Shown here one piece after another: positions 1 to 57,776 of a DNA stretch of 64,000 nucleotides. The stretch's first letter is position 1. Each line of letters opens with the position of its first letter. This stretch comes from a virus: positions 38,066 through 102,065 of IMG/VR virus record IMGVR_UViG_3300032291_002123, one strand, 5' to 3'. The notes under the pieces are model-generated. The model was not told the DNA's origin and ran no database searches. It saw only the letters and a program-made list of their open reading frames with translations. A program made the position numbers and the translations under genes.

Positions 1-3000
1 CATACATATACTTATCCCCGTATCTATCAGCAACTTCCCTTCTCAAGGCGGTTCTATCTTTGTAACTTCTTAGTAGTTCATTAGGGACGAGCATTTCCAT
101 AACTGAATAACCTTCCGAACTTGCAAACTGAGATGCTCTGCTATAGTTTGTAGAAACGTAAGTTCCAGGACCGATAACGCCATTTCCAATAAACGGCTTA
201 CCGTCAACTAACTCTTGAGAAGCATTATTGGGAGCACCCCTAAAAATTCTTGTCAGCCCCAGTTGAGCAGCGCTATTCCAAAGTTCTCTAAATTCATCTT
301 TTGTTACGCCTATTGCTGGTTTATCCCACCCTTGAGCCTCGATAACTTCTTTCATTTTTCTAAAATCTGTCTTATATCCATTGTTTTTTGGATTGTCTTC
401 TTCTTGCCCCCTATTCATAGGATATGAACCTAAGTCAATCTTCTTTCCGATTTTTGCTCTTTGGACGGCTTCATCAGCAACGGCATTTAAATCTTTAGGA
501 GTAGGTGAGCCTAAGTCCTCGTCAGTGGGGGTCTGTGAAGATTGAACCTTGCCAGCAAATTTTTCTCCGTCATCAGTTAGGTTCGAACTGTGGTAAATAG
601 GCATTCCAGCATTTGTTCTAGCAAACTCTAGAATCGCTGTAGCGAGACCCCTACGTTGGAAATCTTCGTCAACTTCAATCATGTTAATAGTAGAGAAAGG
701 CTTGAATTCATCAAAATTAGGGTCGTCTAAAGAACTACCGCCTATGGCATCGGGCCACCAGCGTCTTGAACCGTCAGGTAGGGTCTCTGAGGGAGGCTCT
801 GCATAAGTGACTAATGCTACAGGATTTATGTCTACTTCTCCATTAGGTTCATACGGGTACGCTAGCACTTTGCCATATCGTAGTTCTTCTCCACGCTGAT
901 TAATACTCCATCTATCGTCTCTAACTAACTGGAATCGATTACCGTCGGCGTCAGTGTATTCGCCAGTTTCGGTGATATTTTTGCGTTTACCTTCTTCCGA
1001 GATTTCAGTTTCTAGGTTGTTATCAGACTTAACACGCTTTCTAATTCTTTTTTGGGGAGTTAGGTCTGCGTCCTTGTCTTGGAATACAAGAGTAAATTCT
1101 TCGCCTAGGTCTTCTTCCATAACTTGGCTAGAAGATTGGACAGCGTCTGCGAAGCGAGACCCAGATGGAGTTCTGGTTGCGTCGTGATAGATAGGCATGC
1201 CAGCGTTGGTTCGGGCAAACTCCATCATTGCAGTAGCAATACCTTCACGCTGTAGGGAGTCGTCTACTTCAACCCAGTCGACGGTAGTGAACGGCTTGGT
1301 GTTATCAATTCTCACATTTTCTGAAGAGCCACCGACCTCGGTTTCATCCCACCTTAGTTTTTCTCTAGAGTTATCGTCGACTATGTAATAAGACTTTGCT
1401 TCAGAGTAGTAGAACGAGCCAATGGGCCAAGGGTCAACTTCCGTTGGCTCGATGAAAGAACCTGCGCCTGTGTCGTAAGCACCTTCGGCAGGTAGATATG
1501 CCTCTACGCTTCCTCTGCTTAAATACTCTCTGCCTTCATTGTCGATGTCCCACTGGTCATGGCGAGACAGGATAATCTTTTTGCCATCCTTGGTAACGTA
1601 TTCACCAGTCTCGGTGACGGTTCTAACCTTAGGGAACTCTTTGTTGGCAAACTGACCGCTTAGGTCTAGTTCTCTAACGCTGCTTTTTAGGTCATTGTTA
1701 GATTTAATGCGACTCTTAATTTCTTCTTGAGCGAGTCTTTTTTCCTCAGGTATCTTGCTTGTCACCCTTTCGAACAGAGCCTGAGAAGGAGAGACTCTGT
1801 CACGGACATCGCCGAGGTCTTCATCGAGAACTTGAGCAGGAGATTGGACTCCTGCAGCAAACTCCCTACCATCTTCGCTTAAGTGCTTGCTGTGGTAGAT
1901 AGGGAAGTCAGTGTCGCTGCGAGCCGCTTCTAGCATTGCAGTTGCTAGCCCACGGCGTCTGAACTCATATCTTACTAAAATGCCAGAAATTGTGTAGTAA
2001 GGCTTGTCTTCATCCACTTGGCTTATGTTGACGTCTGCAACTGCGTTCCAAGCACCGTAGCCAACTGGATACATGCTGTAGTCCATGTCACCAACAAGTA
2101 AGAGAGTCTCTTTGCCCCTAGCCATGACGTTGTGCTCTGCCACCATATAGATATTTTTCTCTATTGCCTCTGCTTGTCTCATTGCTGGGCGTGTGTGACT
2201 TATGATGTACTCGTTGCCTTGGGGGTCTGTATAATCAAAATCTTGTCGTATATGTTCTACGCCATCAATGACTAATTTTCTAGGCTCTGCGGCAGACTTA
2301 GTTAGGCGTTGCTTAACGCTTCTGTATTCCGCTGGAACGTCACTTCTAGAAGGTGCGCCTAGGTCTTCCTCTACTACCTGAGCACTAGATTGGACGGAGT
2401 TAGCAAACTGTCTACCGTCATCGCTTAGTATCGGGCTGTGATAAACAGGTGCGTCTAGTGATTCTCTGGCAGCCTCAAGCATTGCGGTTGCTAAACCTTT
2501 GCGCCGCTGTGCTGCATTTACGTAAATTGATGAAATACTATTAAAGGGCTTGTTTTTGTCAAACGGGGCGTAGTTCCCAGCCTCGTCTGGCGGAATGTAT
2601 ACAATTCCTCTTGGGTCAGTTCCTGCATCCCACTGGCTAAGCAGCATGCCGCCCACGTAATTTCCCTCAGAATCTTGTATATTGACAAGCGGGTCGAAAT
2701 AATACTCTGCTAAATCAGGTGAAACTGGCTCTTTTTCTGTAACTTTGGTTTGAGACACTATAACAGTAAACTTTTCTCCATCTTCTGAAGTGTAATCAAA
2801 AGTCTTAAGAGTCTCGCTTTGAGTGCTAGTTGGGTAATTTGTTTTAGTAGTCTTCTCATCGGCTTTTTTAAGTCTAGAAAGAACACTTCTAGATTTCTCG
2901 GAGTCTGGAATTCTAGAACTAGTGCCTAAGTCTTCATCCACGGTAGCGGCAGTAGATTGAACCGCTTCAGCAAATCCTCTACCCCTGTCGGTTATGACGG

Positions 3001-6000
3001 CGCTGTGGTAGATGGGGTAAGGTGCAGTTTGACGTGCAGCCTCAAGCATGGCGGTGGCTATACCCTGCCTTCTAAATTCTTCACCGACGTTAACTCCAGT
3101 GATGGTGTAGAAAGGCTTATCTAAATCGGCTTGTTCTAGGTTTATATCCGATATAAGCGAGAGAAGTTGAGACCTAGATTCTCCAGAGACATTTCGTAGC
3201 CTGTAGGTCATAGTGGCAACGCCACCATTTTCATTTTTTGCCGTTACTGACTGAGCGCCAGTGTACTCATTGGCATCGCCAAAGTTTGAGATGTTGCTAG
3301 TTACAGTGTATTTTTGTCCTTCAGGAGCCTCGTAATCAAAATTGTATTGACTGCGAGAAGGCACGCCCTTAGGTGCGACAATTTTATTTTCAGATGTTCT
3401 CTTTAGCCTGCTTCTAACTTCAGCAGATTTTGCGGAAACGTTAGTGTCGGCTGATACTCCCAAGTCTTCTTCTAATACTTGACTACTAGATTGAACGGCG
3501 TTAGCAAACGCTTCACCGACGCCATCGTTACCTAAGTACTTGCTGTGGTAGACAGGTATGTTAGTAGATTGTCTAACAGCCTCTAGCGCCGCTGTAGCCA
3601 AGCCTTTACGTCTTTTGTCTGGAGCAACAAATACTGAAGATATAACGTAAAAAGGTTTTTTGGTGTTTACACTGTCAGCATCTGAATCTCTCACAAAAAC
3701 CCTAGGGTCTGTCGCCCCAGCAGGGATTATCGACATTTGCATTCCACCAGCACGTTCGCCATTTGAATCATAGATTTTGATATGAGGCGGAATGTACATT
3801 GTGTTGCCAAATCTAACTTTTGCTCGATTAAGGCTAAATTTAATTTGGAACTTTTCCCCGTCTTCTGCCTCGTACTCAAACTCGTGGCTTACACCAATGT
3901 GGGTAGTCCCAAACCTTGCTTTCCAATACCTAGCGCCGCTACTACGACTTTTAGAGATATCTATTCTTTTTAGTCGTTTAAGAACTTCTTCATTCTTGGT
4001 GATGGCTTCTTTGTCAGATTTAGCATTTAGGTCAGACTTAAAGAAAGCGTCAATAGGTTTGATTTTGTCCAACAATCCAGACAATCTGTAGCGCAGCGCA
4101 TCTACTTGACGTCTGGCAGCCTCGGCAACCTGAGGGTTTTTAATTCCGTTAGCAATCTCGGCTGCTCTGTTTACAGAGTCTGCTGCTTTTTTCAGCGTAT
4201 CGTCGTCTAGTTTTTGTTGCTCTAGGTCAGCCTCGGCTGCGTCTACATATGTTCCTAGGTCTTCTTGCAGAATCGGCGGTGGAGATAAGAATTCTTCTGT
4301 GGTGCCAGTGGATGCAGAGTCAGTCTTGTCTTTGTCCTTAGCAGCCTTAACCAGCATTCCCATAGTGAAGGCATCGCTGTTAGCACCGATGAGCATATCT
4401 TCGGCTGATAGTTCACCATTTTCATAAGCCTCTACAACTTTTGAATTGTTGATGTATAGAACATCGTGGCGAGCCGACAAAATACGCTCTGTTCCAACAG
4501 TAAATACTTCATAGGCAGAGTCTGAATTTAGTTCTAAGTTCAAGCCGTCTTGACGGTCATAGAAATATACTCTTCCCGTGTATCTCTCCCTAAACATGTC
4601 ATAAAAAGCGACTTCATCGCTGTTCGGGTGAGTGTTTCTGCCAAGCGTGGAATATGACTCTAGAGAAATAGCGTTTCGGTCTTGACTGTCGTCCATGGCG
4701 TTAGGTCTAGAGCCGTCAGGGTTTTTAGGGAGAATCTGAGAGAACAAGAATCCCCACTCCATACTCTTTAGTTCTGGGTAAGCCTGCTCAAATAGGTGAC
4801 CTAATTCGTGCACGCCAACTGAACCGCCGAGTGGAATATCTGAATCGTGTGCATGCGTGCTTAGTGTTAGTTCGGTGCCGTCTCTATAGCCACCTCTGCC
4901 GTCAGGAGACCAGTCAACAGGCAGCATGCCACCCCAGAATTTTCCAGAATTCTTTACGTAGTCAGCCATTTTTTCTACTACTGCAGCAGGATAACTTCTC
5001 AAAGCCCACTTAATTGATTCTTTGGCTAAATCTACGGAGTCAGACATTTTAGGGTCTGGCATAGTCCTTCTTCTAATGCCATCAAACGAGATGAACTCGC
5101 TGCCGTCACCCTCGTACATAGGAATATCTAGGTCTTTAAAGAGTTGCTGGTATTCTTCCCTTGAAACTACACCTAATCTGTCAGATGCCTTAACGTAATT
5201 CTTTTTAATGTTTCTCAGTTCGATGCGACGTTTATACATGTCGACAACTTCTTGAACGTTGTTTTCGAGAGCGTACCACTCTAACGCCTGTTTTTTGTCG
5301 CCATTTGGTTTCTCAACGATTTTGACCCACTCGCTGTCAATTTTTCCTTGAATCCAATCTTCTTTACTGCGTTCTAATGCTTTTTGAAGAGCGAGGTTTT
5401 TTTGTTTAGGGTCTACAATATCCCTAATATCCTTACCTTCTGAGGCAACACGTATAAACATGGATTCCAGAAAGTCTTTTCTTTCTTCATACTGTTTCTC
5501 AGCCAAGGTGCGAGCGTAATCCCTAGTCTTTTGCTGTAGACGTTTTTCTTCTTCATTTCCAGAAACAACGCTAGCAAGTTTCTCAAAAATGTCGTCGCCA
5601 AACTCGTTTCTCATACGCTGAGAGATTCTTGCTCTGGCAGCAGCAGTTAGCGCCTGAGAGTTCTCGATAAAGGCGTCCATCTCGTCTAGAACTTGGTCGT
5701 CTGGACGCTGCTTCAATTTGAATGAGTCTGGGCTATTTGGAAGGAACTCGGCAAGACGCTTCATCTTTACCATGATGCGAGTGCCTAAACTCTGTTCGTT
5801 GGCATCTTTGTTTACAACTTCTGGAGAAAATAGGAAACTCGGAACAGAAGCATCCATCTCTAGAGCCATCTGCGCTAGAGTCTTATCCTCTTCTGTGGTT
5901 TGTAGGTCGATGCCAACCTTGGCAAGAGTCTCTTTTACTTCTGGAGAGTTAGGAGTGCCTAGGTCTTCTGGAAGAGTAGCCTTAGGGTCTCCACTGTAGA

Positions 6001-8044
6001 GCATCTGACCTTGACGCTCTTCACGCAGTTCTAATTCAGTCTTAGGGCGGTCAGAGCGAGAGTCGTTTTCTTCGGTCATCCACTCTGCAGCATTTTCAAT
6101 TGCTTGCTCTGGGTTGTCGTAAGTTCTACGGCTTGCAGGGTCGAACGAGTCTTGAGATTTCTTGTCGTTGTAAACCTCGCTGACCCATCTGCCTTGAGCG
6201 TTCTGTATAACCGTGCTGCGTAACGCTTCGTCAGAACTTGGCTCAGTGGCGTAAGAGCCGTCTTCTTGCTTAATGAAATCTTCAGGAGTAATTACATCGT
6301 CGTCGTGGACGTGCTCTAAACCTAATCTGTTCTTAAAGTCTCTAGCCTTTTTGTCTCTAGGGTTAGGCTGACGTGGAGAAGTGGTTTCGTTGTTCTCGGC
6401 AATAGCCTGAACGTCTTCCCAGTCTTGTGCGTAGCCGATAACTTCAGGCTTAATGTTCTTGTCTTCCCAAGGTGCAACTTGGCGAGTAATTTCAAAGATT
6501 GGCTGGTCGTCTTCAATTTCGGTTGAGCCACTGCGGAAGCCGTTAACTATAGCGCCGTTCTTAACGTTTGCTTCCATGCGCTGCTGCACTTCCTTGTGCT
6601 GCGCTGGCTGATAGCGTCTTACAGTGAAGCCGCCCAAATCCTTAGCGTTGTTCTTTGTCCTATAAGTCGAGTAAGGCAATCCCTTCTCGGGGTCTGCAGG
6701 AGTAACTGCGTCAAATGTGTTCTTAGGGAATTCTCCTTGAGGAACGTCTCCCCACATACGTCTCTGAACGCTTCCAGCACGCTTCTGGTCGTTCTTTCGG
6801 TCATAGCGTGATACGCCTGCCTGAACATCTCCCCAAGACTGGTAGTAGCCGATTGACTCATTTCCACTCTCGGTGAATCTACCTCGAGGTTGGCTTAGAG
6901 GATTAGTCATAACCTCATAAACAGGATACTTAGGGTCGAGAGCGCCGTTCTCACCTAAGCCTTTTACTTCTGCGCCATACTGCTCTTTGTGACGTTCTAA
7001 ATCTGGCAACGCTGCGCCAGCCTCGTGCTTAATCGCATAGTAGCCGTCAGCAGAAACGAATCCGTTTCCACCAGCAACCCAGCCAGATGGTGCGTCAATT
7101 TTTTGTAGCGTGTTTACATCTAATGCGTAGTCTCTTGCATAATCTGCTGAAGCCTTACCCTTGAGAGAAAGCATCTTTCCAAGTTTGCCGCCGATGTATG
7201 CCTTAACGCCTTCAACATTTGTGGCAGGAATTCTGAAGATTCCAGTTCCTAGAGTTGGGTGGTCAAATACTTCAACGTCAAAGGTATTAGTTTTAGGGTC
7301 TGAGCCGACAAACTTACCAACAACAGAATCGATGAAGCCTTTTAGTCCTCTGGTAAAGAACCTTGCTCCACCACCCATCCAAGCGAAGCGACCTCTACGG
7401 TCTCTACGCTGGAGTTTCGCCCGTGCCGAACGTGCTAAAAAAGAGTTCTCTCCTGAAAACGGGTTACTTGCAGCGATAATCGCAAGCACCACTTCTCTAG
7501 GCACGTCCTGTGCATCAGCAGACTCTAAGCGAGCGATAGAAAACTGACGCTCTACGGTATCTGGCACGGTTAGATACGCTGAAGCGACGACAGGTCTATA
7601 CTCCTCACTAATTCTTGAGTCTGCTGCAAACCACTCACTTCTCTTCTCAATCTTCTCGAGTAGAGATGCATACTCGGTAGAAGTTGATAGAGGGTGACCG
7701 ATAGGTAGTAGGTCGGTGTTGTTTTGAGAAATCTTAGATGGAGTTCCAGTGGTAGCCATGTTTATGTAATCTGAAACTTCACGCAAGGCGGTGAACGCTC
7801 TTGCTTGAGCATCTTGTGACATGATGCTTCTACTTAGTGAACGCTGTGCAACCGTCATAGCCTCGATTGGCATAACCTTACGAGCGTCTAGGACGTTCTC
7901 GTTGGCAGATGCAACCATAGCCTTGATGGTCTCCGAAAAACTTAACTCGCTTGACGGTTCGTCAGAAGGGAGTTCGTTAACGGCAGCAACGTCCAGAGCG
8001 TCAATCAACTGATTGACTGGGTTCTCTTCGTTACTAGGGTACAT
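1..8044 (-). CDS. Giant polyvalent (probably virion-delivered) effector protein, >2680 aa, 3'-truncated by the window: N-terminal domain, zincin metallopeptidase, 6 tandem GNAT domains, ADP-ribosyltransferase-like domain
   Basis: ATG at 8044 with AGAAGGA RBS (MYPSNEENPVNQLIDALD...). The same frame was open at every point I translated down to base 2, and the ORF track lists nothing in this frame, consistent with no stop. HELGH at 4796-4810 followed by YEVFTVGTE; six (Q/R)R(R/K/Q/E)G(L/I)ATA(M/I/A)(L/M)E motifs; RIFRG (236-250) ... GPGTYVSTNYSRASQFA (122-172). Confidence 0.9.
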   Translation of the reverse strand, partial: MYPSNEENPVNQLIDALDVAAVNELPSDEPSSELSFSETIKAMVASANENVLDARKVMPIEAMTVAQRSLSRSIMSQDAQARAFTALREVSDYINMATTGTPSKISQNNTDLLPIGHPLSTSTEYASLLEKIEKRSEWFAADSRISEEYRPVVASAYLTVPDTVERQFSIARLESADAQDVPREVVLAIIAASNPFSGENSFLARSARAKLQRRDRRGRFAWMGGGARFFTRGLKGFIDSVVGKFVGSDPKTNTFDVEVFDHPTLGTGIFRIPATNVEGVKAYIGGKLGKMLSLKGKASADYARDYALDVNTLQKIDAPSGWVAGGNGFVSADGYYAIKHEAGAALPDLERHKEQYGAEVKGLGENGALDPKYPVYEVMTNPLSQPRGRFTESGNESIGYYQSWGDVQAGVSRYDRKNDQKRAGSVQRRMWGDVPQGEFPKNTFDAVTPADPEKGLPYSTYRTKNNAKDLGGFTVRRYQPAQHKEVQQRMEANVKNGAIVNGFRSGSTEIEDDQPIFEITRQVAPWEDKNIKPEVIGYAQDWEDVQAIAENNETTSPRQPNPRDKKARDFKNRLGLEHVHDDDVITPEDFIKQEDGSYATEPSSDEALRSTVIQNAQGRWVSEVYNDKKSQDSFDPASRRTYDNPEQAIENAAEWMTEENDSRSDRPKTELELREERQGQMLYSGDPKATLPEDLGTPNSPEVKETLAKVGIDLQTTEEDKTLAQMALEMDASVPSFLFSPEVVNKDANEQSLGTRIMVKMKRLAEFLPNSPDSFKLKQRPDDQVLDEMDAFIENSQALTAAARARISQRMRNEFGDDIFEKLASVVSGNEEEKRLQQKTRDYARTLAEKQYEERKDFLESMFIRVASEGKDIRDIVDPKQKNLALQKALERSKEDWIQGKIDSEWVKIVEKPNGDKKQALEWYALENNVQEVVDMYKRRIELRNIKKNYVKASDRLGVVSREEYQQLFKDLDIPMYEGDGSEFISFDGIRRRTMPDPKMSDSVDLAKESIKWALRSYPAAVVEKMADYVKNSGKFWGGMLPVDWSPDGRGGYRDGTELTLSTHAHDSDIPLGGSVGVHELGHLFEQAYPELKSMEWGFLFSQILPKNPDGSRPNAMDDSQDRNAISLESYSTLGRNTHPNSDEVAFYDMFRERYTGRVYFYDRQDGLNLELNSDSAYEVFTVGTERILSARHDVLYINNSKVVEAYENGELSAEDMLIGANSDAFTMGMLVKAAKDKDKTDSASTGTTEEFLSPPPILQEDLGTYVDAAEADLEQQKLDDDTLKKAADSVNRAAEIANGIKNPQVAEAARRQVDALRYRLSGLLDKIKPIDAFFKSDLNAKSDKEAITKNEEVLKRLKRIDISKSRSSGARYWKARFGTTHIGVSHEFEYEAEDGEKFQIKFSLNRAKVRFGNTMYIPPHIKIYDSNGERAGGMQMSIIPAGATDPRVFVRDSDADSVNTKKPFYVISSVFVAPDKRRKGLATAALEAVRQSTNIPVYHSKYLGNDGVGEAFANAVQSSSQVLEEDLGVSADTNVSAKSAEVRSRLKRTSENKIVAPKGVPSRSQYNFDYEAPEGQKYTVTSNISNFGDANEYTGAQSVTAKNENGGVATMTYRLRNVSGESRSQLLSLISDINLEQADLDKPFYTITGVNVGEEFRRQGIATAMLEAARQTAPYPIYHSAVITDRGRGFAEAVQSTAATVDEDLGTSSRIPDSEKSRSVLSRLKKADEKTTKTNYPTSTQSETLKTFDYTSEDGEKFTVIVSQTKVTEKEPVSPDLAEYYFDPLVNIQDSEGNYVGGMLLSQWDAGTDPRGIVYIPPDEAGNYAPFDKNKPFNSISSIYVNAAQRRKGLATAMLEAARESLDAPVYHSPILSDDGRQFANSVQSSAQVVEEDLGAPSRSDVPAEYRSVKQRLTKSAAEPRKLVIDGVEHIRQDFDYTDPQGNEYIISHTRPAMRQAEAIEKNIYMVAEHNVMARGKETLLLVGDMDYSMYPVGYGAWNAVADVNISQVDEDKPYYTISGILVRYEFRRRGLATAMLEAARSDTDFPIYHSKHLSEDGREFAAGVQSPAQVLDEDLGDVRDRVSPSQALFERVTSKIPEEKRLAQEEIKSRIKSNNDLKSSVRELDLSGQFANKEFPKVRTVTETGEYVTKDGKKIILSRHDQWDIDNEGREYLSRGSVEAYLPAEGAYDTGAGSFIEPTEVDPWPIGSFYYSEAKSYYIVDDNSREKLRWDETEVGGSSENVRIDNTKPFTTVDWVEVDDSLQREGIATAMMEFARTNAGMPIYHDATRTPSGSRFADAVQSSSQVMEEDLGEEFTLVFQDKDADLTPQKRIRKRVKSDNNLETEISEEGKRKNITETGEYTDADGNRFQLVRDDRWSINQRGEELRYGKVLAYPYEPNGEVDINPVALVTYAEPPSETLPDGSRRWWPDAIGGSSLDDPNFDEFKPFSTINMIEVDEDFQRRGLATAILEFARTNAGMPIYHSSNLTDDGEKFAGKVQSSQTPTDEDLGSPTPKDLNAVADEAVQRAKIGKKIDLGSYPMNRGQEEDNPKNNGYKTDFRKMKEVIEAQGWDKPAIGVTKDEFRELWNSAAQLGLTRIFRGAPNNASQELVDGKPFIGNGVIGPGTYVSTNYSRASQFASSEGYSVMEMLVPNELLRSYKDRTALRREVADRYGDKYMY
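509..4000 (-). repeat. Six diverged tandem GNAT-domain repeats (~540-710 bp each) inside the giant ORF
   Basis: Each unit carries KP(F/Y)...V...RRxG(L/I)ATA.LE.AR....P(I/V)YH......G..FA..VQS......EDLG; units end at EDLG 3458, 2924, 2357, 1811, 1103 and 509. Confidence 0.9.
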
Positions 8045-26258: not shown

Positions 26259-27104
26259 TTATTCTCCTTTACTTGCTTTGTATTTTGCTACTTCTCTTTC
26301 ATACTGCGAAACCTTTTTCGCAATCTTTGGTTCAGCCTCGGCACGAACTTCATCAACCGAAAGATTTTTCTTTTTCGCAATCGCAGCGAGAACTCGAACG
26401 AAATCTAATTTCCTGTTTTCGTTTTTCTCGGCTTGCCAAGTTCTCTCTGGGTCAAAGGTCGCAATCTCAAAACCAGCATTGACCAACCAAATCTCCGCAG
26501 AGCGCAAAGTGTTGATTGGCTCTCGGTAATCTCCAAAGCCGTAAACTTTGAGAGGGTTTCCGTCAAGGTCTTTGATACCTTTGAGTTCCCGTGCTTCATC
26601 ACGCACACGCTTTGCTTCATCACGCACACGCTTTGCCTCGACAAGTTCTGGGTCGGCAATCACACAAGGGCGATACTTGTAATCAACGGGGGCGTTCGGG
26701 AAACAAACAGAGCAAGCCATTTCCCCAGCGTCTTTCACAATCTTGTCCTCATCAGCGCCAGAGTATTCGGTGAGCCACAAGAACTGAGTGGTTGGGTAGC
26801 AAGTGCCACAATTCATAGTTGAGTGGATGTGTCCATTACCATTACGCACGAGAAACGCTCTTGACCAGCCCTCGTATTTCTTTTCCAACTCGGCAATCTC
26901 GTTTATCAACTTATCGAACTGCGGAGATAACTCGGCAATCTTTTCCTCGTTGCTAACGATAATCTTGTCGTAGTAAGAGTATGCGCTCTTACGGAAACGC
27001 TGGTTCTGCTCGGTGAGGTTTTGGATTTCGTAGAACACTCGGCTCTTTTGTTCCCACGCTTTCGCTAGGGCGGTATCCACTTCTATTGGATTTACTGTAT
27101 ACAT
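26259..27104 (-). CDS. Hypothetical coiled-coil/zinc-binding early protein
   Basis: GHIHSTMNCGTC...CSVCFPNAP; perfect TGTCGG-N10-TACCTT promoter and GAAAGGAG RBS before the ATG at 27104. Confidence 0.75.
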   Translation of the reverse strand: MYTVNPIEVDTALAKAWEQKSRVFYEIQNLTEQNQRFRKSAYSYYDKIIVSNEEKIAELSPQFDKLINEIAELEKKYEGWSRAFLVRNGNGHIHSTMNCGTCYPTTQFLWLTEYSGADEDKIVKDAGEMACSVCFPNAPVDYKYRPCVIADPELVEAKRVRDEAKRVRDEARELKGIKDLDGNPLKVYGFGDYREPINTLRSAEIWLVNAGFEIATFDPERTWQAEKNENRKLDFVRVLAAIAKKKNLSVDEVRAEAEPKIAKKVSQYEREVAKYKASKGE

Positions 27105-27518
27105 TACAACTCCTTTCCTACATCTATAAGGTAGCACTAGCCCCCGACATTTGTCAAGTTTATTCCCAATCTTTTTTAGCGTTTCGCTTTACTGATTGGC
27201 GAGTTTTTAGTCGGCGAGTTCTCCTATCGGCGTGAGTTCCATTAGCACCCGAACGATTACGCTCTCGCAACAGAACGGATAGGGCGAACGCCTCGACATT
27301 ACGCCGAGCCAAGTTTGTTCGGTTCAGTTTCATCTCTCTCTCCTTTCACTTTTAGAATACAGCATACCTCTGACATCTGTCAATGTCCAAAGGGTAGCCC
27401 TTTTTCCACGCAAATCACGCTAAAAAAATAAGCGACCTGGTATCGCATAAGACTTTCTGTTTGTCAAGTCGGCAAGAAAAAAGCCGAGATTTCTCTCGGC
27501 TCTCTCTGTCGGTATCGC

Positions 27519-27767
27519 TTAGACAATCTCAAAGGTGAGGTCGTCGAGCAAGCCAGCGAAGTCTGGGTGGCTCTCCTGCCACTCCTGAAACTCCTCCATT
27601 TCCTCCCTAGTCCATTTACCCTCTGGGTCAATGGCAATCACCTCGTAGCCCTCTCCCTCGGCGTAGGCAAACTTGTAGTAAAAGTCCTTGCCCTTATAGG
27701 TCGCAATTCCTTTTCTTGTCCAAGCGTTAGTTTCCTCGCTCACGCTGACGATTTTGATTTCGCTCAT
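27519..27767 (-). CDS. Hypothetical protein
   Basis: Translationally coupled; AGGAG RBS. Confidence 0.6.
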   Translation of the reverse strand: MSEIKIVSVSEETNAWTRKGIATYKGKDFYYKFAYAEGEGYEVIAIDPEGKWTREEMEEFQEWQESHPDFAGLLDDLTFEIV

Positions 27768-27955
27768 AGGTATTCTCCTGTTTTCTCTACTGTGATTTCT
27801 AGAACATCAAGCGTTCCAATGTCTATGCCGTCGTAGGCTAGTTTGTCCTCGGCTTGACCTATCGGCAACTCGTCGTTCTCCTCTGCCACATAAGCCAGCG
27901 TGGTTATAGAGCAATTCTCTAACGAGAACCGCACTTCGTATTCGTGGGTTGTCAT
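27764..27955 (-). CDS. Hypothetical protein
   Basis: ATGA overlaps on both sides. Confidence 0.6.
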   Translation of the reverse strand: MTTHEYEVRFSLENCSITTLAYVAEENDELPIGQAEDKLAYDGIDIGTLDVLEITVEKTGEYL

Positions 27956-28245
27956 TCCTTCTCCTCTGCTAGTTTGTCGGTTTCGGCAAGCAAGCGATAC
28001 TGCTCTGCCACATCATTCGGGTCGGCAACTTCGGTAGCACCGCACTCCTCGCACTCGTTTAGGTTTCGGTCTGTCCAAAGAACCCAAGTGTGATACTCGC
28101 ACTCTTGGTCGTAGTCCAGCAGAACCTCTTGGCAATCTCCGCACTCAACGGCAACATTCACTGGGTCGCTTGGGTCGCCGTAAGTATTGACACTCACTTT
28201 ATGACCAGCGTGAGCAACCAATTCCGCAAAATTATTTACGCTCAT
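27952..28245 (-). CDS. Zinc-binding hypothetical protein
   Basis: HAGHKV...NVAVECGDCQEVL...CEECG; own promoter. Confidence 0.65.
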   Translation of the reverse strand: MSVNNFAELVAHAGHKVSVNTYGDPSDPVNVAVECGDCQEVLLDYDQECEYHTWVLWTDRNLNECEECGATEVADPNDVAEQYRLLAETDKLAEEKE

Positions 28246-29082
28246 TTTATTTCTCCTTTTCTCTCCAACACTTTTACTATACTGCTAGCCTCTGACACTC
28301 GTTCGGCGGTCTATCTCTGTCGGGCAATACTCGACGGGAAAGCCAGCGTGGTCGTGCGACCACAATCCGTCAAGCACGAGATACGACGAGGTGATACGCA
28401 ATCCGCACTCGGCACATTCGCCGAACCACACACGATTATCTTTTCGGTATCCATCTCCGGGATTTAGAACCGAGAAGTTTGTGCCTAATCCTTTTTCCCG
28501 GATTGACTTCACATTTATTTCTGTCATTTCATCTCTCCCTATCCCAAGTGGATAAACGCCCGAAACTTTTTCTCGCAATTCCAGCAAAGGATTTTGCCAG
28601 ACCAACTCGTGATGAACTTTGGTTGCTTTTTACCGAACGATACTCCGCACTTTTCGCACTTGCTAGCACTCAACGATTTGTGGTTCACGAACGAAATTGC
28701 CATTTGATTTCTCCTAATCTTTCCGACACTTTTAGGGTATACCCACCCTCTGACACTCGACCTACTCGCTGTCGAAAATACAATGGCTACGAACCTCGAC
28801 CACGAAATCCTTGCCAGCGACTTTGCCACCGAACTCTTTTAGTCCGTAGACATAAGAACGAACCTCGACTTCGGTAAAGAACTCTCGCTCGATACCACTC
28901 GACAATTTGACAACCCACGACACAGCACCAACGCTCATAGTGCCTCCCTTCACTTCTTACGATACGGCAATTCTCCACTTATGTCAAGAGAAACGCCGTA
29001 AGTTTTTAGAAAGTTTTTTCGGCAAAGGGTCGGTGATTTTCCACGCACCAGAGGCAAAAAAAGATTGGAACTCTGCGACATA

Positions 29083-29218
29083 AGAAAATCCCCTATCACG
29101 AAAGGGGGGGGGGGTGTGATAGGGGATTTCTTTTACTATCGGGGGAGAACCTCGGCAGGTATGTTATCTAGAAAGGGGGGGGGATTAGATAACGGCGTTG
29201 AGGTCGTCAGCCCGATAG
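29083..29218 (-). ncRNA. 6C-like small RNA / 3'-UTR element: two hairpins with C9 and C11 loops
   Basis: gttatcta-atCCCCCCCCCtttc-tagataac nested in longer stems, then cccctatcac-aCCCCCCCCCCCtttc-gtgatagggg followed by a U-tract. Confidence 0.6.
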
Positions 29219-29226
29219 CCTCGGGG

Positions 29227-29550
29227 CTACTTTACAATAGCCACGAAGTCATACGGGTTCTCGTAAGACGCTTTTTCCCAAGCCTCTGGGAAAGCGGTTT
29301 TGAGAACATCTCGTTTGAGGTCGGTGCGGTTTCGGTGTTCGATTTTGTAGACGGCAACTCCACCCACAGTTGCGAACTCGGCAAGTCCGATTGCTTTACG
29401 CAGAACTTCCTCGGCTTGTGCCTTCTTAGCCTTCGCCTCTTTTTCGGCGTTGCTCGCCTCGGTAAAGTCGGCGATTGCCTGTCGAGCCTCGGCACTAAAT
29501 CCAACTTCTACGGAAGTGCCTTTTACAGTAGCGGTAATAGTCTTTGACAT
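29227..29550 (-). CDS. Hypothetical protein, paralog of 23739-24062
   Basis: Shared SVEVGF...AIADF.EA.NAEKEAKA...R.DLKRDVLK.AFPEA.E.ASYENPYDF. Confidence 0.8.
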   Translation of the reverse strand: MSKTITATVKGTSVEVGFSAEARQAIADFTEASNAEKEAKAKKAQAEEVLRKAIGLAEFATVGGVAVYKIEHRNRTDLKRDVLKTAFPEAWEKASYENPYDFVAIVK

Positions 29551-29663
29551 CTCACCACTCCTTTCATTTTGTCATTTCGGTTTTGTGGGAACTCCCACAT
29601 TTCTAGGGTAAGGGATACAATCCCTTTTGTCAATTCCAAACACGGCGTGTCGGAAAAGTTTTT

Positions 29664-29972
29664 TTATCCAACTACATCTTGGAAAGTCTGGGCAACTGCC
29701 TCGTCAAGAGCCTCGACCAACTCGGCAATCTTGTCGTCTGGCAAATCACGAACTAGGTCAAGGGTGATTTCAGATTTCCACACCACAACCTTGTCAGCGT
29801 TCGCCAATCGGAAATCTCCGAGAGCCTCGGCAACTCCGCAAGCAGAACAAATCTCGGTCTTGTTATCGGCACGAGAAATCGCTCCGGGATACGCCCCCGG
29901 GTTTTCGTTGCTTGGTATGTAGCCAGAACACTTCGGGCAACGAACCAAGTCTTTGTCATAAGCATCGCTCAT
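29664..29972 (-). CDS. Zinc-binding hypothetical protein
   Basis: Start re-set to MSDA after GAAAGGAG; CPKC...YPGAISRADNKTEICSACG. Confidence 0.7.
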   Translation of the reverse strand: MSDAYDKDLVRCPKCSGYIPSNENPGAYPGAISRADNKTEICSACGVAEALGDFRLANADKVVVWKSEITLDLVRDLPDDKIAELVEALDEAVAQTFQDVVG

Positions 29973-30226
29973 TTTGTATCTCCTTTCACTTCTGATTGTG
30001 CCAGAGTATCGAACTTTTGTCAAGTCTATTTTGACATTTTTCCAAACTTTTTTTCGGCGACCATCTCGATTTTTTTGTGTGTCAATTCCACGATACCAAG
30101 ACCCTCTGACATTGGGCGAAAGTCGTTTTGACATAAGCGAAAAGTATTTCCGGGATTAGCCCGGTTTTGCGTGGAAAATCGGCAACCCTTTACAAAAAAG
30201 GATTGGCTCTCGCCAATCCAATTTTG

Positions 30227-30493
30227 CTAGTTCAGACCTTCAATCCGTAATTCGCAGGTATCGCAGACCTTGTGGTTTCCGTCGAAATCCCAATCCGTCG
30301 TATTGAACTGATGCTCACCCGCTACGAAGTGTTCGGCTAGTTCTCGTCTCTCGCTATCACCAGCATCATCTATCGCACTCCACATTAGTTCTGTCCAAGA
30401 ACTCGTATCCGTTAGCACTAAGTCCTTAGCATCTCCGTATGAACCATCCTCGGCAAAATAAGTCTTGCTCTTAGCGGTTTCGCTTGCCGTCAT
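30227..30493 (-). CDS. Hypothetical protein
   Basis: Coupled to the upstream ORF; terminator at 30199-30218. Confidence 0.6.
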   Translation of the reverse strand: MTASETAKSKTYFAEDGSYGDAKDLVLTDTSSWTELMWSAIDDAGDSERRELAEHFVAGEHQFNTTDWDFDGNHKVCDTCELRIEGLN

Positions 30494-30843
30494 TAGACAT
30501 CATCCTCTCCGATAAATACAATCTCCAACTTGGCAACTCGTTCTCCCCAGCCGTCGAGGTCTACGAAGTGGGCGACTACTGGATACAATCCGTCTCCCAA
30601 TCCTGTCCGTGATACTACTCCCGAGCCAGCGTGTCCAGCAAGGAAGTTCAACTGTCCGTTATCCTCTTGCCGTAGGGTCAGGTCGCAAGCACCAGCGTAG
30701 GAATAGTCTCCGTTAGGAACTCTCGTGCCGTATTCGTTGTCTCCCCATCCACCGAGATAACTCGGGTCGGTGATAAGTATCTGTCCACTATCGACGGCAC
30801 AGAATCCGATTACGGCTTGCCGTGTTTTGTTTTTGGTTGTCAT
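30493..30843 (-). CDS. DUF4241-like hypothetical protein
   Basis: GFCAVDSGQILITDPSY...TGLGDGLYPV. Confidence 0.6.
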   Translation of the reverse strand: MTTKNKTRQAVIGFCAVDSGQILITDPSYLGGWGDNEYGTRVPNGDYSYAGACDLTLRQEDNGQLNFLAGHAGSGVVSRTGLGDGLYPVVAHFVDLDGWGERVAKLEIVFIGEDDV

Positions 30844-30985
30844 TCCTTCTCCTCTGTTTTCGGCGGTGATAGTTTCCACTCTAAAGTCTCGAGCGTGTTC
30901 TCGTCGTAGTCGCCCGTCGAACGCATCTCGGCAATCGTGTCAAGAACATCCGTAATAATCTTTTCGTAAATCGTCGGGTCAATCA

Positions 30986-31207
30986 TTACGCATCCACGCT
31001 CTCTACCTCATACTCGGCGGTCTCGCACCAGTTCTTGAGAACTCGTGCCGTGTCGTCGCCGAACGAATCGCTGTCCTCTAAGTAATCGGCAATCGCCTCA
31101 AACTGCTCGGGGTTGTATGAAGTGTGTTCGGCAACCAAGAACTGAAATACAATCGGCTCGTCTGGGTCGAAAGTTTTCAGCAGGTCGATTAGTTTTTGAA
31201 CTGTCAT
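30986..31207 (-). CDS. Hypothetical protein
   Basis: MTVQKLIDLLKTFDPDEPI N-terminus; GAGGAG RBS. Confidence 0.6.
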   Translation of the reverse strand: MTVQKLIDLLKTFDPDEPIVFQFLVAEHTSYNPEQFEAIADYLEDSDSFGDDTARVLKNWCETAEYEVESVDA

Positions 31208-34925: not shown

Positions 34926-35060
34926 TTAGCCACCAGTCCTTTCATCTCTACTTCTCAATTATTGCAAAATCTCTGACTAATGTCAAGTCCTTCTTTGGTG
35001 TGTCTGGGGCGATGGGATTGGAGACCACCACCCCAGACGAACACGAATCTAGGGAAGGAA

Positions 35061-36071
35061 CTAGATTCGTGCTGGCTTGACTTCCTCGCCGAACGCACGA
35101 CTGAAAACATCGGCAACGACTGGTCTGTCAAGTTCTGGTGCGCTAGCAAGCAAGTTGCTAATCGCAAACGAAGTTCCGAACAACTCGGCGAGGTCTCGGA
35201 AAGCGAGAACTTCACGCATCTGCGGAGACCACGACACTTCATCACTCGCTTGCTTTTTCGCAAGATTCTGGCTGGCAGTAATCACAACAGCAGGAACGCC
35301 CAACTTACGAGCGATAGTCCAGTCAGTAGTCATTTCTGCTTGAACAGAGAATCGAGAGAGCAACGCCTCGGAGAGAACAACTCCCGGTGCATTGGGGTTC
35401 GTTGCACTAACCACAAAGAATCCATCCTTGGCTTTTACTGTGCCACGCTCCGGGTTTTGAGTGATAGTGATTTCACCACGACCATCCATTAGTCCATAGA
35501 CCAACGAAAGAACTTTCGGGTCTACCAAACCAATCTCGTCAATCAGGAGAACTTTACCCTCCTCGACTGCACGAACGAGAGGACCATCAATCCACTCGAA
35601 CCCACCACTTGCAGTCTGAACATAACCACCAACGAAGTCTGCAACTTCGGTGTCGCCAGTTCCAATGACTGTGTAGAGGTCGTCGCCAAAAGCAGCCTCG
35701 AGCATCGCAGTCTTACCAGTTCCCGGTGCGCCATAAAGCAGAACATACTTCTTGGCATCACGAGACTTGCGAATCACTTCGATGTCGGCGTGTTCAGTAT
35801 TACCCCACTTGCGAGAAGTGTAGGTCTCACCATTAGGTCGAACATAAACTCCTTCACCACTAAGTGCCTCTGCCACGATGGTTTTCACCCTCTTTGTAGT
35901 TCCTGAATTGTCTCGCACACGAATGACTGCACGACCAGATGCCTCGTCGAAAAACTTGTCAAGCGATGCATCTAATTCTGCATTTAGTTTTTGACCACTA
36001 ACTGCAAACAGAGCCTCGGAAAGTTCTTTCGAGAATCGTTCTTGGTCGATAATTACTTGTTGTCTATTCAT
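35061..36071 (-). CDS. MoxR/CbbQ/CobS-type AAA+ ATPase
   Basis: GAPGTGKT, DGPLVRA, LLIDEI, ATNP, LSEALLSRF. Confidence 0.9.
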   Translation of the reverse strand: MNRQQVIIDQERFSKELSEALFAVSGQKLNAELDASLDKFFDEASGRAVIRVRDNSGTTKRVKTIVAEALSGEGVYVRPNGETYTSRKWGNTEHADIEVIRKSRDAKKYVLLYGAPGTGKTAMLEAAFGDDLYTVIGTGDTEVADFVGGYVQTASGGFEWIDGPLVRAVEEGKVLLIDEIGLVDPKVLSLVYGLMDGRGEITITQNPERGTVKAKDGFFVVSATNPNAPGVVLSEALLSRFSVQAEMTTDWTIARKLGVPAVVITASQNLAKKQASDEVSWSPQMREVLAFRDLAELFGTSFAISNLLASAPELDRPVVADVFSRAFGEEVKPARI

Positions 36072-39964: not shown

Positions 39965-40257
39965 AAGCCTTCGACATCCTTAAGTAAGACCGAGCAGGAA
40001 GACTTGGGGAGAGACTGCTTCCTGCCCGGTCGACTTTTGCAACGTTCTTAAGGTTGCCGTCTTAAGGTGTCTCTTCCCGCCAAGGTTTTTATAAACCCTG
40101 ACGTATAACACTATAAAGGGAAAGCCGAATAGCGTTCGGACGATTTTTTGGGTGAGGTGAGGGAGAGAGAAGCGTTTTCCGTTTAGAAAGGCAAAAAAAT
40201 CCCCTAGAAATCAAGGAACTCGAAATCTAGGGGAAGTTTTTTGAAAGTGATTTGAAA

Positions 40258-49202: not shown

Positions 49203-49409
49203 ACCTTTATTATAAATTACTTCTAATTAGGCGAGAAAAGGAAAACCCCCAGCGCTAGAAAGGAGTTAAGAACGCTGGGGGCTTCCCGTGAAAGGAGATG
49301 ATACTACAACATGCAAAACACATTTTGAGGATACGTGTATTACCTAGATATGTTAACACGACGTTTTCGAGATTTGCAAGCAGACTTACAAAAATCTTTT
49401 TATTATAAC

Positions 49410-55113: not shown

Positions 55114-55307
55114 GTGTTTTCTATGTCCTCTAGGTCAGACTCGAACTGACACTGTGCAGATTTTAAGTCTGCTGCCTCTGCCATTGGGCTACTAGAGGTT
55201 TCTCTTTCTCTCTTTGCTTGATAGAACTTACGCTTTTCTTCAGTAATTCTTCTCTGCTTTATCGTAGCGACAGCCTTACGGACGTCGGCGTCAGTGAAGT
55301 CACTCAT
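55110..55307 (-). CDS. Hypothetical ORF reading through tRNA-Leu
   Basis: Basic N-terminal half; the stop forms an ATGA overlap with the oxygenase start. Confidence 0.4.
   Translation of the reverse strand: MSDFTDADVRKAVATIKQRRITEEKRKFYQAKRERETSSSPMAEAADLKSAQCQFESDLEDIENT
55126..55198 (-). tRNA. tRNA-Leu(TAA), short variable arm, CCA not encoded
   Basis: CCTCTAG/CTAGAGG acceptor stem, TAGCCCAATGGCAGAGGC D-arm, GCAGA-CTTAAAA-TCTGC anticodon arm, GTTCGAGT T-loop. Confidence 0.88.
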
Positions 55308-55407
55308 TTAATCGAGCGGTCTTTCTTACGTCTGTCTTTGTAGCACTGAGGGCAGATGCTCCCAGTGAACCTAATCCTATGCGTTCTGCACGGATAACCT
55401 ACATTAC

Positions 55408-55821
55408 TCATAACCCAATCTTCCTTAGAACGTCTACTACTGGAACCAGTCTACCGATACTGGCGTTTGTATTTAGGGTTGCGATTGGCTGATGCACTAC
55501 ACGATAGTCATTTTCCCTAAGCAGTTCTTTTAGGGATTCAGTCTTTATCATTACAAAGCCGTTTTTGTTCGGTCCAGCAAAGCACCAATACTCAGCCTGT
55601 GTGACATTGATGCCAGATGGCTTCTTATCTATTGCGTTAGGTTGCTTGTATTGCCAAGTTTCAATATAGAAGTTCCCCGTCTCCCAAGCACGATAATCAG
55701 TTTTGACCTCAAACTTGTTCCCAGCCAAGTCAGCCAGAAAGGTATTTAGTAAGTCTTCGCCTACCTTGCCACGCTCTAAGTCAGTATCGAAGTGCGGTTG
55801 GTATCCAACCACCATTGTCAT
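55408..55821 (-). CDS. Hypothetical protein, PD-(D/E)xK-like
   Basis: FDTDL..G..GE...FEVKTD....TGN.YIE...PSGI..T.A.YW. Confidence 0.65.
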   Translation of the reverse strand: MTMVVGYQPHFDTDLERGKVGEDLLNTFLADLAGNKFEVKTDYRAWETGNFYIETWQYKQPNAIDKKPSGINVTQAEYWCFAGPNKNGFVMIKTESLKELLRENDYRVVHQPIATLNTNASIGRLVPVVDVLRKIGL

Positions 55822-55834
55822 TACCTTTCTGTCG

Positions 55835-55905
55835 CTCCCCGACCTAGATTCGAACTAAGACTAACGACTCCAAAGGTCGCTGTGCTGCCATTACACCATC
55901 AGGGA
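55835..55905 (-). tRNA. tRNA-Gln(TTG), CCA not encoded
   Basis: TCCCTGA/TCGGGGA acceptor, TGGTGTAATGGCAGCAC, GCGAC-CTTTGGA-GTCGT, GTTCGAAT. Confidence 0.9.
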
Positions 55906-55911
55906 TTGCTA

Positions 55912-56472
55912 CTACTTTATGTGTGCGTTAGGCATTATGTCCACCATCAAATGAACTCTGTCTACTTCAGAAAAGTTATTTACGTAGTGCAAGCGTGAAT
56001 TGTTAATTTCCCAGCACTCGCCTTCTGCCATAGACAACTCCTCACCACCTACCCCGAAGTACGTATCCTTAGAAGTAACGATAGGGATGTGATGTCTCCT
56101 ACACACGTTTAGGTATATCCCCTTGTCGGTATGCTCTGAAACACTTTTATTTGCAGGCAACTTGATTAGAACAATCTGTCCACGTTTGCCGTTATGTATT
56201 TCTTCTAAGCGAGACACGATTGGCTCAACTAGTTCTAGCAACTCAGCGTTATCGCTTACTAGAGTAATTATGCAACCAGACCCCACGTGCCACTCAAAAT
56301 CTGTTTTATATAAGAAGTAGGAGTTAGTTTCCTTGTGGACTTCGTGAATTTCTTGACGCTCAGTATTTACTAGCCACTCTTCTTGGAAGTTATGCACCAG
56401 TTCTTTTATATCACTTACGTCGAAAGACCCGTGGTTTCGGAAATTGAATGGCTCATTTGCTTTGCTTTCCAT
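55912..56472 (-). CDS. Aspartyl/asparaginyl beta-hydroxylase family 2OG oxygenase
   Basis: KLPA...VSEHTD...RHHIPIVT...GECWEINN...HYVNN....RVHLMVD. Confidence 0.85.
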   Translation of the reverse strand: MESKANEPFNFRNHGSFDVSDIKELVHNFQEEWLVNTERQEIHEVHKETNSYFLYKTDFEWHVGSGCIITLVSDNAELLELVEPIVSRLEEIHNGKRGQIVLIKLPANKSVSEHTDKGIYLNVCRRHHIPIVTSKDTYFGVGGEELSMAEGECWEINNSRLHYVNNFSEVDRVHLMVDIMPNAHIK

Positions 56473-56516
56473 GTGTCTATCTTACCTTCTGGACGTCGAC
56501 GCTATAAGATGTTCTT

Positions 56517-57038
56517 ATGTTTACAGTACAGATGACAAAAGATGAAATCCGCAGATGTGCGAATATGGCAGTTGAACTCTGGATTGAGAAGTTCGGCAGT
56601 GAAGACCGCCCTAACTATGCTGAGGGTAAGAAAAATGGCTCACTCCAGCACGACCTAACCTCTAACACCAGAACCATCACCGCTGAGATGGCTGTTGCCA
56701 AAGCCACAAATACGACTCTTAACTACCCCGTTTACTCGAACTACCTACACCCATACAGAAAGCACCTTCCTGATGTCGGCGGCAACATGGAGGTTCGCAC
56801 CGTTCGCACTCGTGGAGAAGTTCCCATCTGGAAGAAGGACGCCGGCAAGGCAATCGTGGGCTGTTATGTTCCAGACGAGGAGTTCTTCTCCGAAGTAGAG
56901 ATTTATGGATGGGTCATGGCTGACGATGTTATTGGAAAGCCAGAATTCGAGGACTCCTACATTGGTGGCTGGCGTTATCCACTTACGTCGATGACAGCGT
57001 TTCCAGAGCCAGAGCACTTAAATAAGCCAATCTGGTAA
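56517..57038 (+). CDS. Hypothetical protein (possible restriction-endonuclease-like fold)
   Basis: AEMAVAK...PDVG...EVRT...GW. Confidence 0.65.
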   Translation: MFTVQMTKDEIRRCANMAVELWIEKFGSEDRPNYAEGKKNGSLQHDLTSNTRTITAEMAVAKATNTTLNYPVYSNYLHPYRKHLPDVGGNMEVRTVRTRGEVPIWKKDAGKAIVGCYVPDEEFFSEVEIYGWVMADDVIGKPEFEDSYIGGWRYPLTSMTAFPEPEHLNKPIW

Positions 57039-57105
57039 AAGTTATATAATAATGTATCACTTTTGGACAGATTATCTCTTATAGACTTAAGTTTAAGTTT
57101 ATAAA

Positions 57106-57453
57106 TCAGTTCTCGTCTTCGCTGGCTTTCAAAGCCCTTTCAGCCTTCTTGCGTTCTTTCAATGCTTTTACGAGATTAGCGTCGGTAGTGCTCTTGGCGT
57201 GAACGGTTTTCACTTTGTCGAGCGTAAAACTGCGGAACGACTCCATCCCCTTAGGACCTCCGATGACGGTAATCCACTCTTTTCCCTTATCCGTCTTTGT
57301 GTAGTTGACAAATCTAAAGCGACCACGCTCACCAGCGATTTTAAGTTCTGTTCCGTTAGTGACGTTGCGACCATTAATCTGCATCTCCGTGATGTACTCC
57401 CAATCATCGTTGGGGCACGGAGTGCTTTTCTTTGACTTCTTAATTTTCGCCAT
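57106..57453 (-). CDS. Hypothetical protein (SH3-like, actinophage type)
   Basis: GTELKIAGERGRFRF....WI.V.GG....FRSF. Confidence 0.65.
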   Translation of the reverse strand: MAKIKKSKKSTPCPNDDWEYITEMQINGRNVTNGTELKIAGERGRFRFVNYTKTDKGKEWITVIGGPKGMESFRSFTLDKVKTVHAKSTTDANLVKALKERKKAERALKASEDEN

Positions 57454-57473
57454 GATGCCTACTATACATGAAA

Positions 57474-57763
57474 AGTAAAAAACCTCGCATCTTTCGACAC
57501 GAGGCTTTTTACCTTGACTATCCAGCCAAGAGGTCTTCCATCACTATCCAGCAATGGTCGAATATTTATACTTCATACTCTATAACCGTGACCCACCTTA
57601 TCCGAGTTGCGAATTCGGACTTTCCACTACTTCCCTGTTCTCGCATTTCACCTAAGAATCTAGGTCTACTTTTTGATACTGCGGTTCTGTGAGGGGACGT
57701 GCTAACTGCATACACCAGTCAATAGGTCAGTAGAACTACGATACGGAATTAGTATTCAGTTGT
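57474..57763 (-). ncRNA. Candidate unknown structured RNA directly downstream of tmRNA
   Basis: ~290 nt with no credible ORF; starts with a boxA-like TGCTTGACAACTGAATA; ends in a GC hairpin plus U-tract at 57477-57510. Confidence 0.45.
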
Positions 57764-57776
57764 CAAGCATTTCTTT

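Follow-up and report, generated by a model that had tools for sequence, protein, structure and literature searches.

A structured 3′-end RNA element with C-rich hairpin loops in related phages, resembling 6C RNA in design

A predicted mRNA of a lake phage, encoding a 107-aa protein, was found to end in two consecutive hairpins, each of which presents a large loop dominated by cytosines. Comparison with related phages makes it very probable that these hairpins form a real, conserved and structured 3′-end RNA element whose C-rich loops are under selection. Judged from its sequence, the element is an analogue of the actinobacterial 6C RNA in design and not a detectable homologue of it, and it may act in the 6C manner, by base-pairing to G-rich RNA that resembles ribosome sites, a mode of action that we propose tentatively and by analogy. 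The window, by which we mean the whole 64,000-nt stretch of DNA analysed, belongs to a virus record of 102,065 bases in IMG/VR (IMGVR_UViG_3300032291_002123, positions 38,066 to 102,065) with a completeness estimate of 76% and a G+C content of ~46%.

Results

Two hairpins with C-rich loops end a predicted phage mRNA

The features of the transcription unit, which lies among genes that are likewise on the minus strand, are the following in window coordinates.

29605-29633, minus strand: promoter read from the sequence, TTGACA (29633-29628), a 17-nt spacer and TACCCT (29610-29605)
29585-29598, minus strand: 5′UTR hairpin at the transcript start; every relative of 58-99% identity has this small hairpin or an extended form of it
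29558-29565, minus strand: Shine-Dalgarno sequence GAAAGGAG of the 107-aa gene; GAAAG kept in relatives of 58-99% identity
29227-29550, minus strand: open reading frame of the 107-aa gene, function unknown; the hairpins lie in its 3′UTR
29135-29219, minus strand: hairpin 1, a stack of three helices interrupted by internal loops; no U-tract behind it
29171-29185, minus strand: loop of hairpin 1, 15 nt, A-U-C9-UUUC; unpaired probability 0.87 in the full predicted transcript
29083-29132, minus strand: hairpin 2, a probable intrinsic terminator with a 14-15-bp stem
29100-29115, minus strand: loop of hairpin 2, 16 nt, A-C11-UUUC; unpaired probability 1.0
29080-29089, minus strand: U-rich tail behind hairpin 2, 6 U in 10

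The promoter is missed by a consensus promoter scan because its -10 hexamer is weak; a TTGACA-17/18-TAnnnT motif occupies the equivalent position in L003, L006, L007, L008, L009, L012 and L013, which are loci carrying homologues of the gene. Throughout the relatives of 58-99% identity (the L003-L013 sites), the 5′UTR hairpin is followed by an A-rich spacer and then by GAAAG. The 107-aa protein itself has 12 homologues of 58-96% identity, with 37 residues invariant in their alignment. It gave only weak PHROG matches (phrog_434, in its C-terminal part, and phrog_1956), no match in a Pfam search, and an AlphaFold model of low confidence (pLDDT 62).

Hairpin 1 begins 8 nt past the stop codon of this gene, and in the gap between them no promoter motif was seen by eye or returned by the consensus scan, which places the hairpins in the 3′UTR and terminator of the gene. 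The preliminary description had regarded the RNA as derived from a 3′UTR, and the spacing, the missing promoter motif and the U-tract at hairpin 2 uphold that position. Hairpin 2 has a GC-rich stem and a U-tract on the transcribed strand at a gene end, as an intrinsic terminator does, with a loop of atypical size, and it stands exactly at the operon boundary, where it is followed by an intergenic box and then by the next promoter. This promoter (TTGACA-17-TATCGT), downstream of the box copy at 29046-29037, separately serves the next small gene. The anatomy thus predicts that a monocistronic transcript with its own promoter ends in the two hairpins.

The 176-nt stretch containing both hairpins folds at -52.4 kcal/mol, compared with -32.7 ± 3.4 kcal/mol for dinucleotide shuffles (z = -5.9; 0 of 200 shuffles equalled it), whereas its opposite strand reaches only z = -2.9. 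Both hairpins are retained when the predicted full transcript of 503 nt is folded, and their loops are unpaired with P = 0.87-1.0. The word C9-TTTC occurs twice, against 0.03 occurrences expected, and the C9 and C11 tracts, with homopolymer lengths as given in the metagenome assembly, are the sole runs of at least 7 G or C in the entire 102,065-base record. In its strand, its two-hairpin anatomy and its stems and loops, the element lies at the minus-strand coordinates that had been assigned to it beforehand, and the preliminary description proved right in every detail of the structure.

Related phages keep large C-rich loops on unrelated stems

Near and distant DNA searches of cultured phages returned nothing useful, and scanning IMG/VR with single proteins from four neighbouring genes found no relatives. 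An alignment-based scan of viral and metagenome contigs gathered 15 loci for the 107-aa gene, and tblastn identified a 43%-identical homologue of its protein in DSL-LC01 (L020). Eight lineages spanning 43-99% protein identity were compared with the window, namely L008, L009, L007, L003/4/5/10, L006/11, L012, L013 and DSL-LC01; the loci compared leave out the contigs of the 69-96% identical homologues (P0001-P0006), except for the 1-kb metagenome contig L008. MAFFT alignments of the elements were not structurally consistent because the stems have been replaced with indels, and the stems of the relatives were judged by folding each sequence singly.

Folded in this way, all eight other lineages carry the homologous gene followed by hairpins in the sense orientation, two of them in seven lineages and one in L013. 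The stems are perfect helices, of 11-15 bp in the terminator hairpin and 6-14 bp in hairpin 1, and their sequences are unrelated between lineages; the loops range from 6 to 29 nt. U-rich tails like that behind hairpin 2 are also present in L007, L009, L013 and L003. The loops read as follows.

L008: U-C5-GA-CC-UUUC and AAU-C8-UUUC
L007: AAAU-C6-AACGA and C6
L009: UAAU-C5-AACUG and U-C5
DSL-LC01: AAU-C3-AAC, and a second loop rich in A and C
L013: a single hairpin, with C6 plus CUUUCUC
L003, L006 and L012: loops like the 16S rRNA tail, of the CCUCUC, CUUCCUUUC and CCACCUUUC types

When all 17 loops are pooled (270 nt), they contain 47% C, 28% U, 21% A and 4% G, compared with 21% C and 22% G in the intergenic background of the transcribed strand, a strand that overall holds more G than C; the depletion of G in predicted loops is partly a by-product of folding. 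Both loops of one genome share the same flavour, which is a C run in the window, L008, L007 and L009, and CCUC or CUUC in L003, L006 and L012. Loop sequence is not strictly conserved, as DSL-LC01 has only C3 and L013 only one hairpin. At the three most distant loci of the scan (49% identity; a clade that includes L014 and L015), the gene is followed by ordinary terminators with small loops.

It had been suggested, from stems that differ and loops that match within the window, that selection acts on the loops, and the relatives bear this out, having retained large C-rich loops while the stems were replaced. What is conserved is the C-rich character; the exact C9/C11-UUUC type recurs only in the closest relative, whereas the more distant ones have C5-C8 runs or loops of the CCUC type.

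Scanning with a 15-mer from the conserved linker returned only contigs that were already known, together with chance matches. When IMG/VR was scanned for the exact pattern of two C8-TTTC words separated by 40-70 nt, one unrelated phage with a different arrangement was returned. In this phage (L002, IMGVR_UViG_3300050335_000039; positions 4800-4960, minus strand), C9-TTTC forms part of a direct repeat of ~25 nt, the copies of which lie directly behind a terminator hairpin and T-run, outside the loops.

The interior of hairpin 1 is rewritten between near-identical sequences

The -10 box, the 5′UTR and the A-rich linker of the window are identical in L008, as are the outer stem of hairpin 1 and the hairpin 2 stem, and the two coding sequences differ at 4 of 324 bases, all of them adjacent. 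Between these two sequences the interior of hairpin 1, ~55 nt in length, has been rewritten by substitutions and indels. The interior in L008 still forms a stem-loop, with an AUC5...CCUUUC loop, and both tracts differ in length, C9 in the window corresponding to C5-GA-CC in L008, and C11 to C8. The record contains neither a second copy of the interior nor a donor for it. On this comparison of two sequences, the rewritten interior may be either a small recombination patch or the outcome of very fast local evolution constrained on structure and loop character.

Ordinary terminators of these phages have small loops

Other strong hairpins with U-tracts provide an internal control. In the related loci these have GAAA or UUCG tetraloops. 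Within the window, small loops (GAGA, GAAA, UUCG and others) cap the terminators that stand ahead of other intergenic-box copies, and a 16-nt loop is found only in the 107-aa unit. Because standard tetraloop terminators are used elsewhere in these phages, the large C-rich loops appear to be a kept feature and not a local style.

The idea that all large hairpin loops of the phage are rich in pyrimidines was not supported overall (mean Y = 0.48 genome-wide). Strong hairpins at 35.0-35.1, 40.0-40.2 and 49.25 kb also show the trait of pyrimidine-rich loops. At the junction of an AAA-ATPase and a VWA gene (35002-35073, minus strand), tandem hairpins consist of a 13-bp stem that carries an 8-nt loop of pyrimidines only, UUCCUUCC, followed by a 10-bp stem with a 17-nt CU-rich loop; a TTGACA-17-AATAAT promoter stands behind them, and the layout is like that at 29083-29219, without C runs or a U-tract. 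Further strong hairpins with large loops resembling anti-Shine-Dalgarno sequences lie at 39988-40234 and 49246-49281, both on the minus strand. In the former region, a terminator with a 17-nt loop at 40234-40200 (minus strand) precedes a long CU-rich tract, and a 14-bp hairpin at 40031-39988 (minus strand), whose loop contains CUCUCCCC, lies 24 nt ahead of a start codon. The hairpin at 49246-49281, at a convergent junction near 49.26 kb, has a perfect core of 9 bp (17 bp when folded) and a loop end, CUCCUUUCU, equal to the 16S tail.

The intergenic box itself is a ten-base sequence, GCGTGGAAAA, with 14 exact copies in both orientations between 15860 and 37955 of the window, where ~5 near-matches are expected. 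Its copies apparently lie in intergenic gaps, with the terminator, where one was found, preceding them, and with the next promoter behind the copy at 29046-29037. The box also occurs in related loci, in either orientation, and is probably the operator of an early-gene regulon.

Ribosome sites of the phage do not single themselves out as partners

The preliminary description had named ribosome-binding sites of the GAAAGG(G/A)G type, in host or early phage mRNAs, as the targets of the loops. The CCUUUC loop end does complement GAAAGG, which is found upstream of ~16 of 97 roughly called starts. Across nine lineages, duplex energies of the loops with their own 5′UTR or with the ribosome site of the next gene were no better than those of shuffled loops (p = 0.12-1.0), and the pure C-run loops of L007 and L009 form very weak duplexes with these sites (-2 to -4 kcal/mol). 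A contact of the icaR type between 3′UTR and 5′UTR, or an insulation of the next gene, thus found no support, since pairing was no better than that of shuffled loops in the nine lineages. Furthermore, no phage ribosome site contains a run of at least 5 G. On the phage side the proposed targets accordingly found no support, the own and next-gene sites pairing like shuffled loops and no ribosome site carrying a G run. A partner for 9-11 cytosines should then be external to the phage, with host mRNAs as the most plausible place, or be a protein; the target is probably a host RNA or a protein.

Runs of G5-6 on the transcribed strand occur mainly in promoter spacers and terminator stems. One class of five promoters, with the motif ATGTC(A)G (17206, 20077, 24296, 25894 and 27145, minus strand), has a G5-G6 run in the spacer directly behind the motif, and relatives have other GC-rich spacers, one of them with C6. 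No link was found between the G5-G6 promoter spacers and the poly-C loops.

The host of the phage is actinobacterial

The phage record encodes a WhiB-family protein (65.7 bits), a family that was detected only in Corynebacterium among 14 control genomes. All 876 of the 876 matches to its portal protein among cultured or named phages are actinophages, the nearest portal relatives being the lake phage DSL-LC01 (72%) and large Microbacterium phages. From the WhiB gene and the uniformly actinophage portal matches, the host is assigned to the Actinobacteria. A search of genome contigs found no prophage and no host bin for the phage. The sole genome contig to match the phage ribonucleotide reductase (60% identity) is the 3.4-kb L019 (JBMCYV010000063.1), from a bin described as a Nitrosomirales archaeon MAG, and is probably a mis-binned phage fragment.

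Elsewhere in the window, on the minus strand, tRNA-Leu, tRNA-Gln, a tmRNA (tag AESRSAFALAA) and the WhiB-family gene are located at 55125-58112 and 59258-59587. An open frame of more than 2681 codons at 2-8044 (minus strand), which continues past the window end, adjoins the portal and head genes and has many GNAT acetyltransferase repeats among its Pfam matches.

Discussion

A possible mode of action and its alternatives

Under the reading that we prefer, a sigma-A-type promoter would give a short, separate phage mRNA that runs from the 5′UTR hairpin through the 107-aa gene to hairpin 1 and then to hairpin 2 with its U-tract. Hairpin 2 would end transcription, and both hairpins would protect the 3′ end. 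The working part would be the large unpaired C-rich loops, which recall the 16S rRNA 3′ tail with added C, and the acting form could be either the whole mRNA or a stable 3′ fragment that accumulates after the coding part has decayed. Through G-C contacts the loops would pair with single-stranded G-rich sites, as a rule in ribosome-binding regions, most likely those of host mRNAs, and would block their translation without a chaperone, as 6C does.

One alternative is that the hairpins are a plain tandem terminator and 3′-end stabiliser, in which the C-rich loops have no partner and are neutral or nuclease-avoiding filling. The U-rich tail of hairpin 2 and its exact position at the operon boundary would suit such a role, as would the clade of L014 and L015, which manages with small-loop terminators here, and the pairing searches that returned no target. 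However, the other terminators of the same phages have GAAA, GAGA or UUCG tetraloops; large loops, which weaken terminators, nevertheless persist in nine lineages; no U-tract follows hairpin 1; the loops contain 47% C against a background of 21% and against the G excess of their strand; and a motif is common to both loops of one genome. We regard this explanation as unlikely. The loops could also be displayed to a protein, the poly-C serving as sites for a C-specific protein, most plausibly as a primary site for the host Rho (a rut-like anchor or a titrating decoy), or for KH-domain proteins. Rho prefers C-rich, G-poor single strands, and the loops are G-poor, YC-rich and fully exposed in the predicted fold; the order of bases within them seems to matter little, which suits recognition by composition. 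Against such a display, the loops, at 6-16 nt, would make a short rut site, in several lineages they resemble the 16S tail (the CUUCCUUUC and CCACCUUUC types) and not simple C-richness, and no Rho-related or poly-C-binding gene was identified adjoining the element. We consider protein display distinctly improbable.

We give little credence to regulation in cis, in which the loops would damp translation by pairing with a ribosome site, either that of the mRNA to which they belong, in the manner of S. aureus icaR, or, on read-through transcripts, that of the next gene. The complementarity of the CCUUUC loop ends to the GAAAGG of the gene's own Shine-Dalgarno sequence, a hexamer also present ahead of roughly one in six of the called starts, would favour it, but the duplexes are no better than those of shuffled loops in nine lineages and amount to only -2 to -4 kcal/mol in L007 and L009. 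A function at the level of DNA is the account to which we attach hardly any weight. Here the G/C homopolymer hairpins would serve replication, packaging or recombination, or the tracts would be slippage-prone contingency tracts, in line with tract lengths that differ between near-identical phages (C9 against C5-GA-CC, C11 against C8) and with an interior of hairpin 1 that resembles a recombination patch. Yet it is invariably the transcribed strand that carries the C-rich side, directly past the stop codon and with U-tracts behind the second hairpin; the RNA fold of the sense strand is far stronger than that of its opposite (z = -5.9 against -2.9); and the tracts lie outside promoters and reading frames, with no second copy or donor in the record.

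The base-pairing reading can be taken further, to a version that we think unlikely as it stands and offer as speculation by analogy. In it, the element would be a fast-evolving, gene-linked "poly-C display" RNA of freshwater actinophages, a viral counterfeit of the host 6C that shuts down host functions with G-rich leaders, and diversification of the hairpin 1 interior and of the loop tracts would serve to track host targets. If this were true, the phage would possess an RNA weapon for host takeover in a phylum that, to our knowledge, is without Hfq and ProQ. The element may provide a handle on how abundant lake phages reprogramme hosts that are not yet easily cultured. It may also provide one on the tuning of anti-Shine-Dalgarno specificity, as both C-run and CCUC loops occur, and on the reason for which a 55-nt RNA structure is rewritten between otherwise identical genomes. 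If the loops instead bind Rho or another protein, they would represent a new kind of phage decoy.

Comparison with known systems

Few regulatory RNAs are known from Actinobacteria, and they are poorly understood; the best studied is 6C. We had to decide whether the element belongs to this family, as its earlier labelling as a phage-encoded 6C-like RNA and the accompanying proposal of an Infernal comparison with the Rfam model implied. Searching the 102-kb record from end to end with the 6C model (RF01066; gathering score 47 bits) yielded nothing at E ≤ 10, by a route that is not very sensitive, as the C. glutamicum control was detected only below the cut-off. The family was also absent among the 11 families listed for a 211-nt scan (29040-29250) and in nine related loci, and there was no match in 27000-31000. 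Membership in the family is thus not borne out. The best Rfam match was the sub-threshold ar14 (RF02344), with 24.7 bits and E 0.005 in the 211-nt search, against a gathering score of 58.8.

The ar14 RNAs are alpha-proteobacterial sRNAs with CCUCCUCCC loops, and they share with the element a succession of hairpins, C/U-rich anti-Shine-Dalgarno loops and a terminator at the end. The element differs in scoring far under the gathering score, in leaving the middle hairpin of the model unmatched and in belonging to another phylum. RsaE/RoxS and the hairpins of S. aureus RNAIII, from the Firmicutes, have C-rich loop motifs that pair with Shine-Dalgarno regions, a design like that of the element, and the UCCCC motif of the icaR 3′UTR is a precedent for such a motif within a 3′UTR. 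In contrast to these Firmicutes RNAs, the C9-C11 runs of the element are much longer, and the window has no RsaE match. With intrinsic terminators, hairpin 2 shares a GC-containing stem of 14-15 bp and a U-rich tail at the end of the unit; unlike them, it has a 16-nt loop where the phage's other terminators have tetraloops, and it is preceded by a hairpin without a U-tract.

The closest likeness is to 6C RNA (RF01066; B11 in mycobacteria), whose definition requires a stem-loop structure of ~80 nt with two loops, both containing six or more cytosines (PMC5014011). In M. tuberculosis, the 6C loops bind the AGGGGGG ribosome site of panD and the dnaB leader with no chaperone, and overexpression inhibits growth (PMC6486639). 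Extra copies of 6C have been described on mycobacterial plasmids (PMC9569102); in the literature searched, we found no report of a phage-encoded 6C-type RNA. Like 6C, the element is actinobacterial and has two hairpins, each exposing at least six loop cytosines, and by analogy the chaperone-free G-C pairing of 6C to G-rich ribosome-binding regions would be expected of it (PMC5014011, PMC6486639). At least six C in each of two loops are present in the window (C9, C11) and, with C6 in both, in L007; L008 has C5 and C8, L009 has C5 in both, and the others have shorter runs. Unlike 6C, the element is phage-borne and forms the 3′UTR and terminator of a protein-coding mRNA; it has a long first hairpin of three helices, and its loops, in which a 3′ UUUC copies the 16S tail, range among relatives from C11 to the CCUC type. 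A compact, free-standing gene of ~80 nt with a strong promoter of its own was not what we found, as the element is ~135 nt long and its promoter lies upstream of the 107-aa gene. With no model match, a 3′UTR location and a greater length, it is filed here as a 6C-like analogue and not as a member of the family. The presence of the defining 6C design on a background of no sequence homology suggests, by analogy, that phages have independently taken up chaperone-free pairing through C-rich loops.
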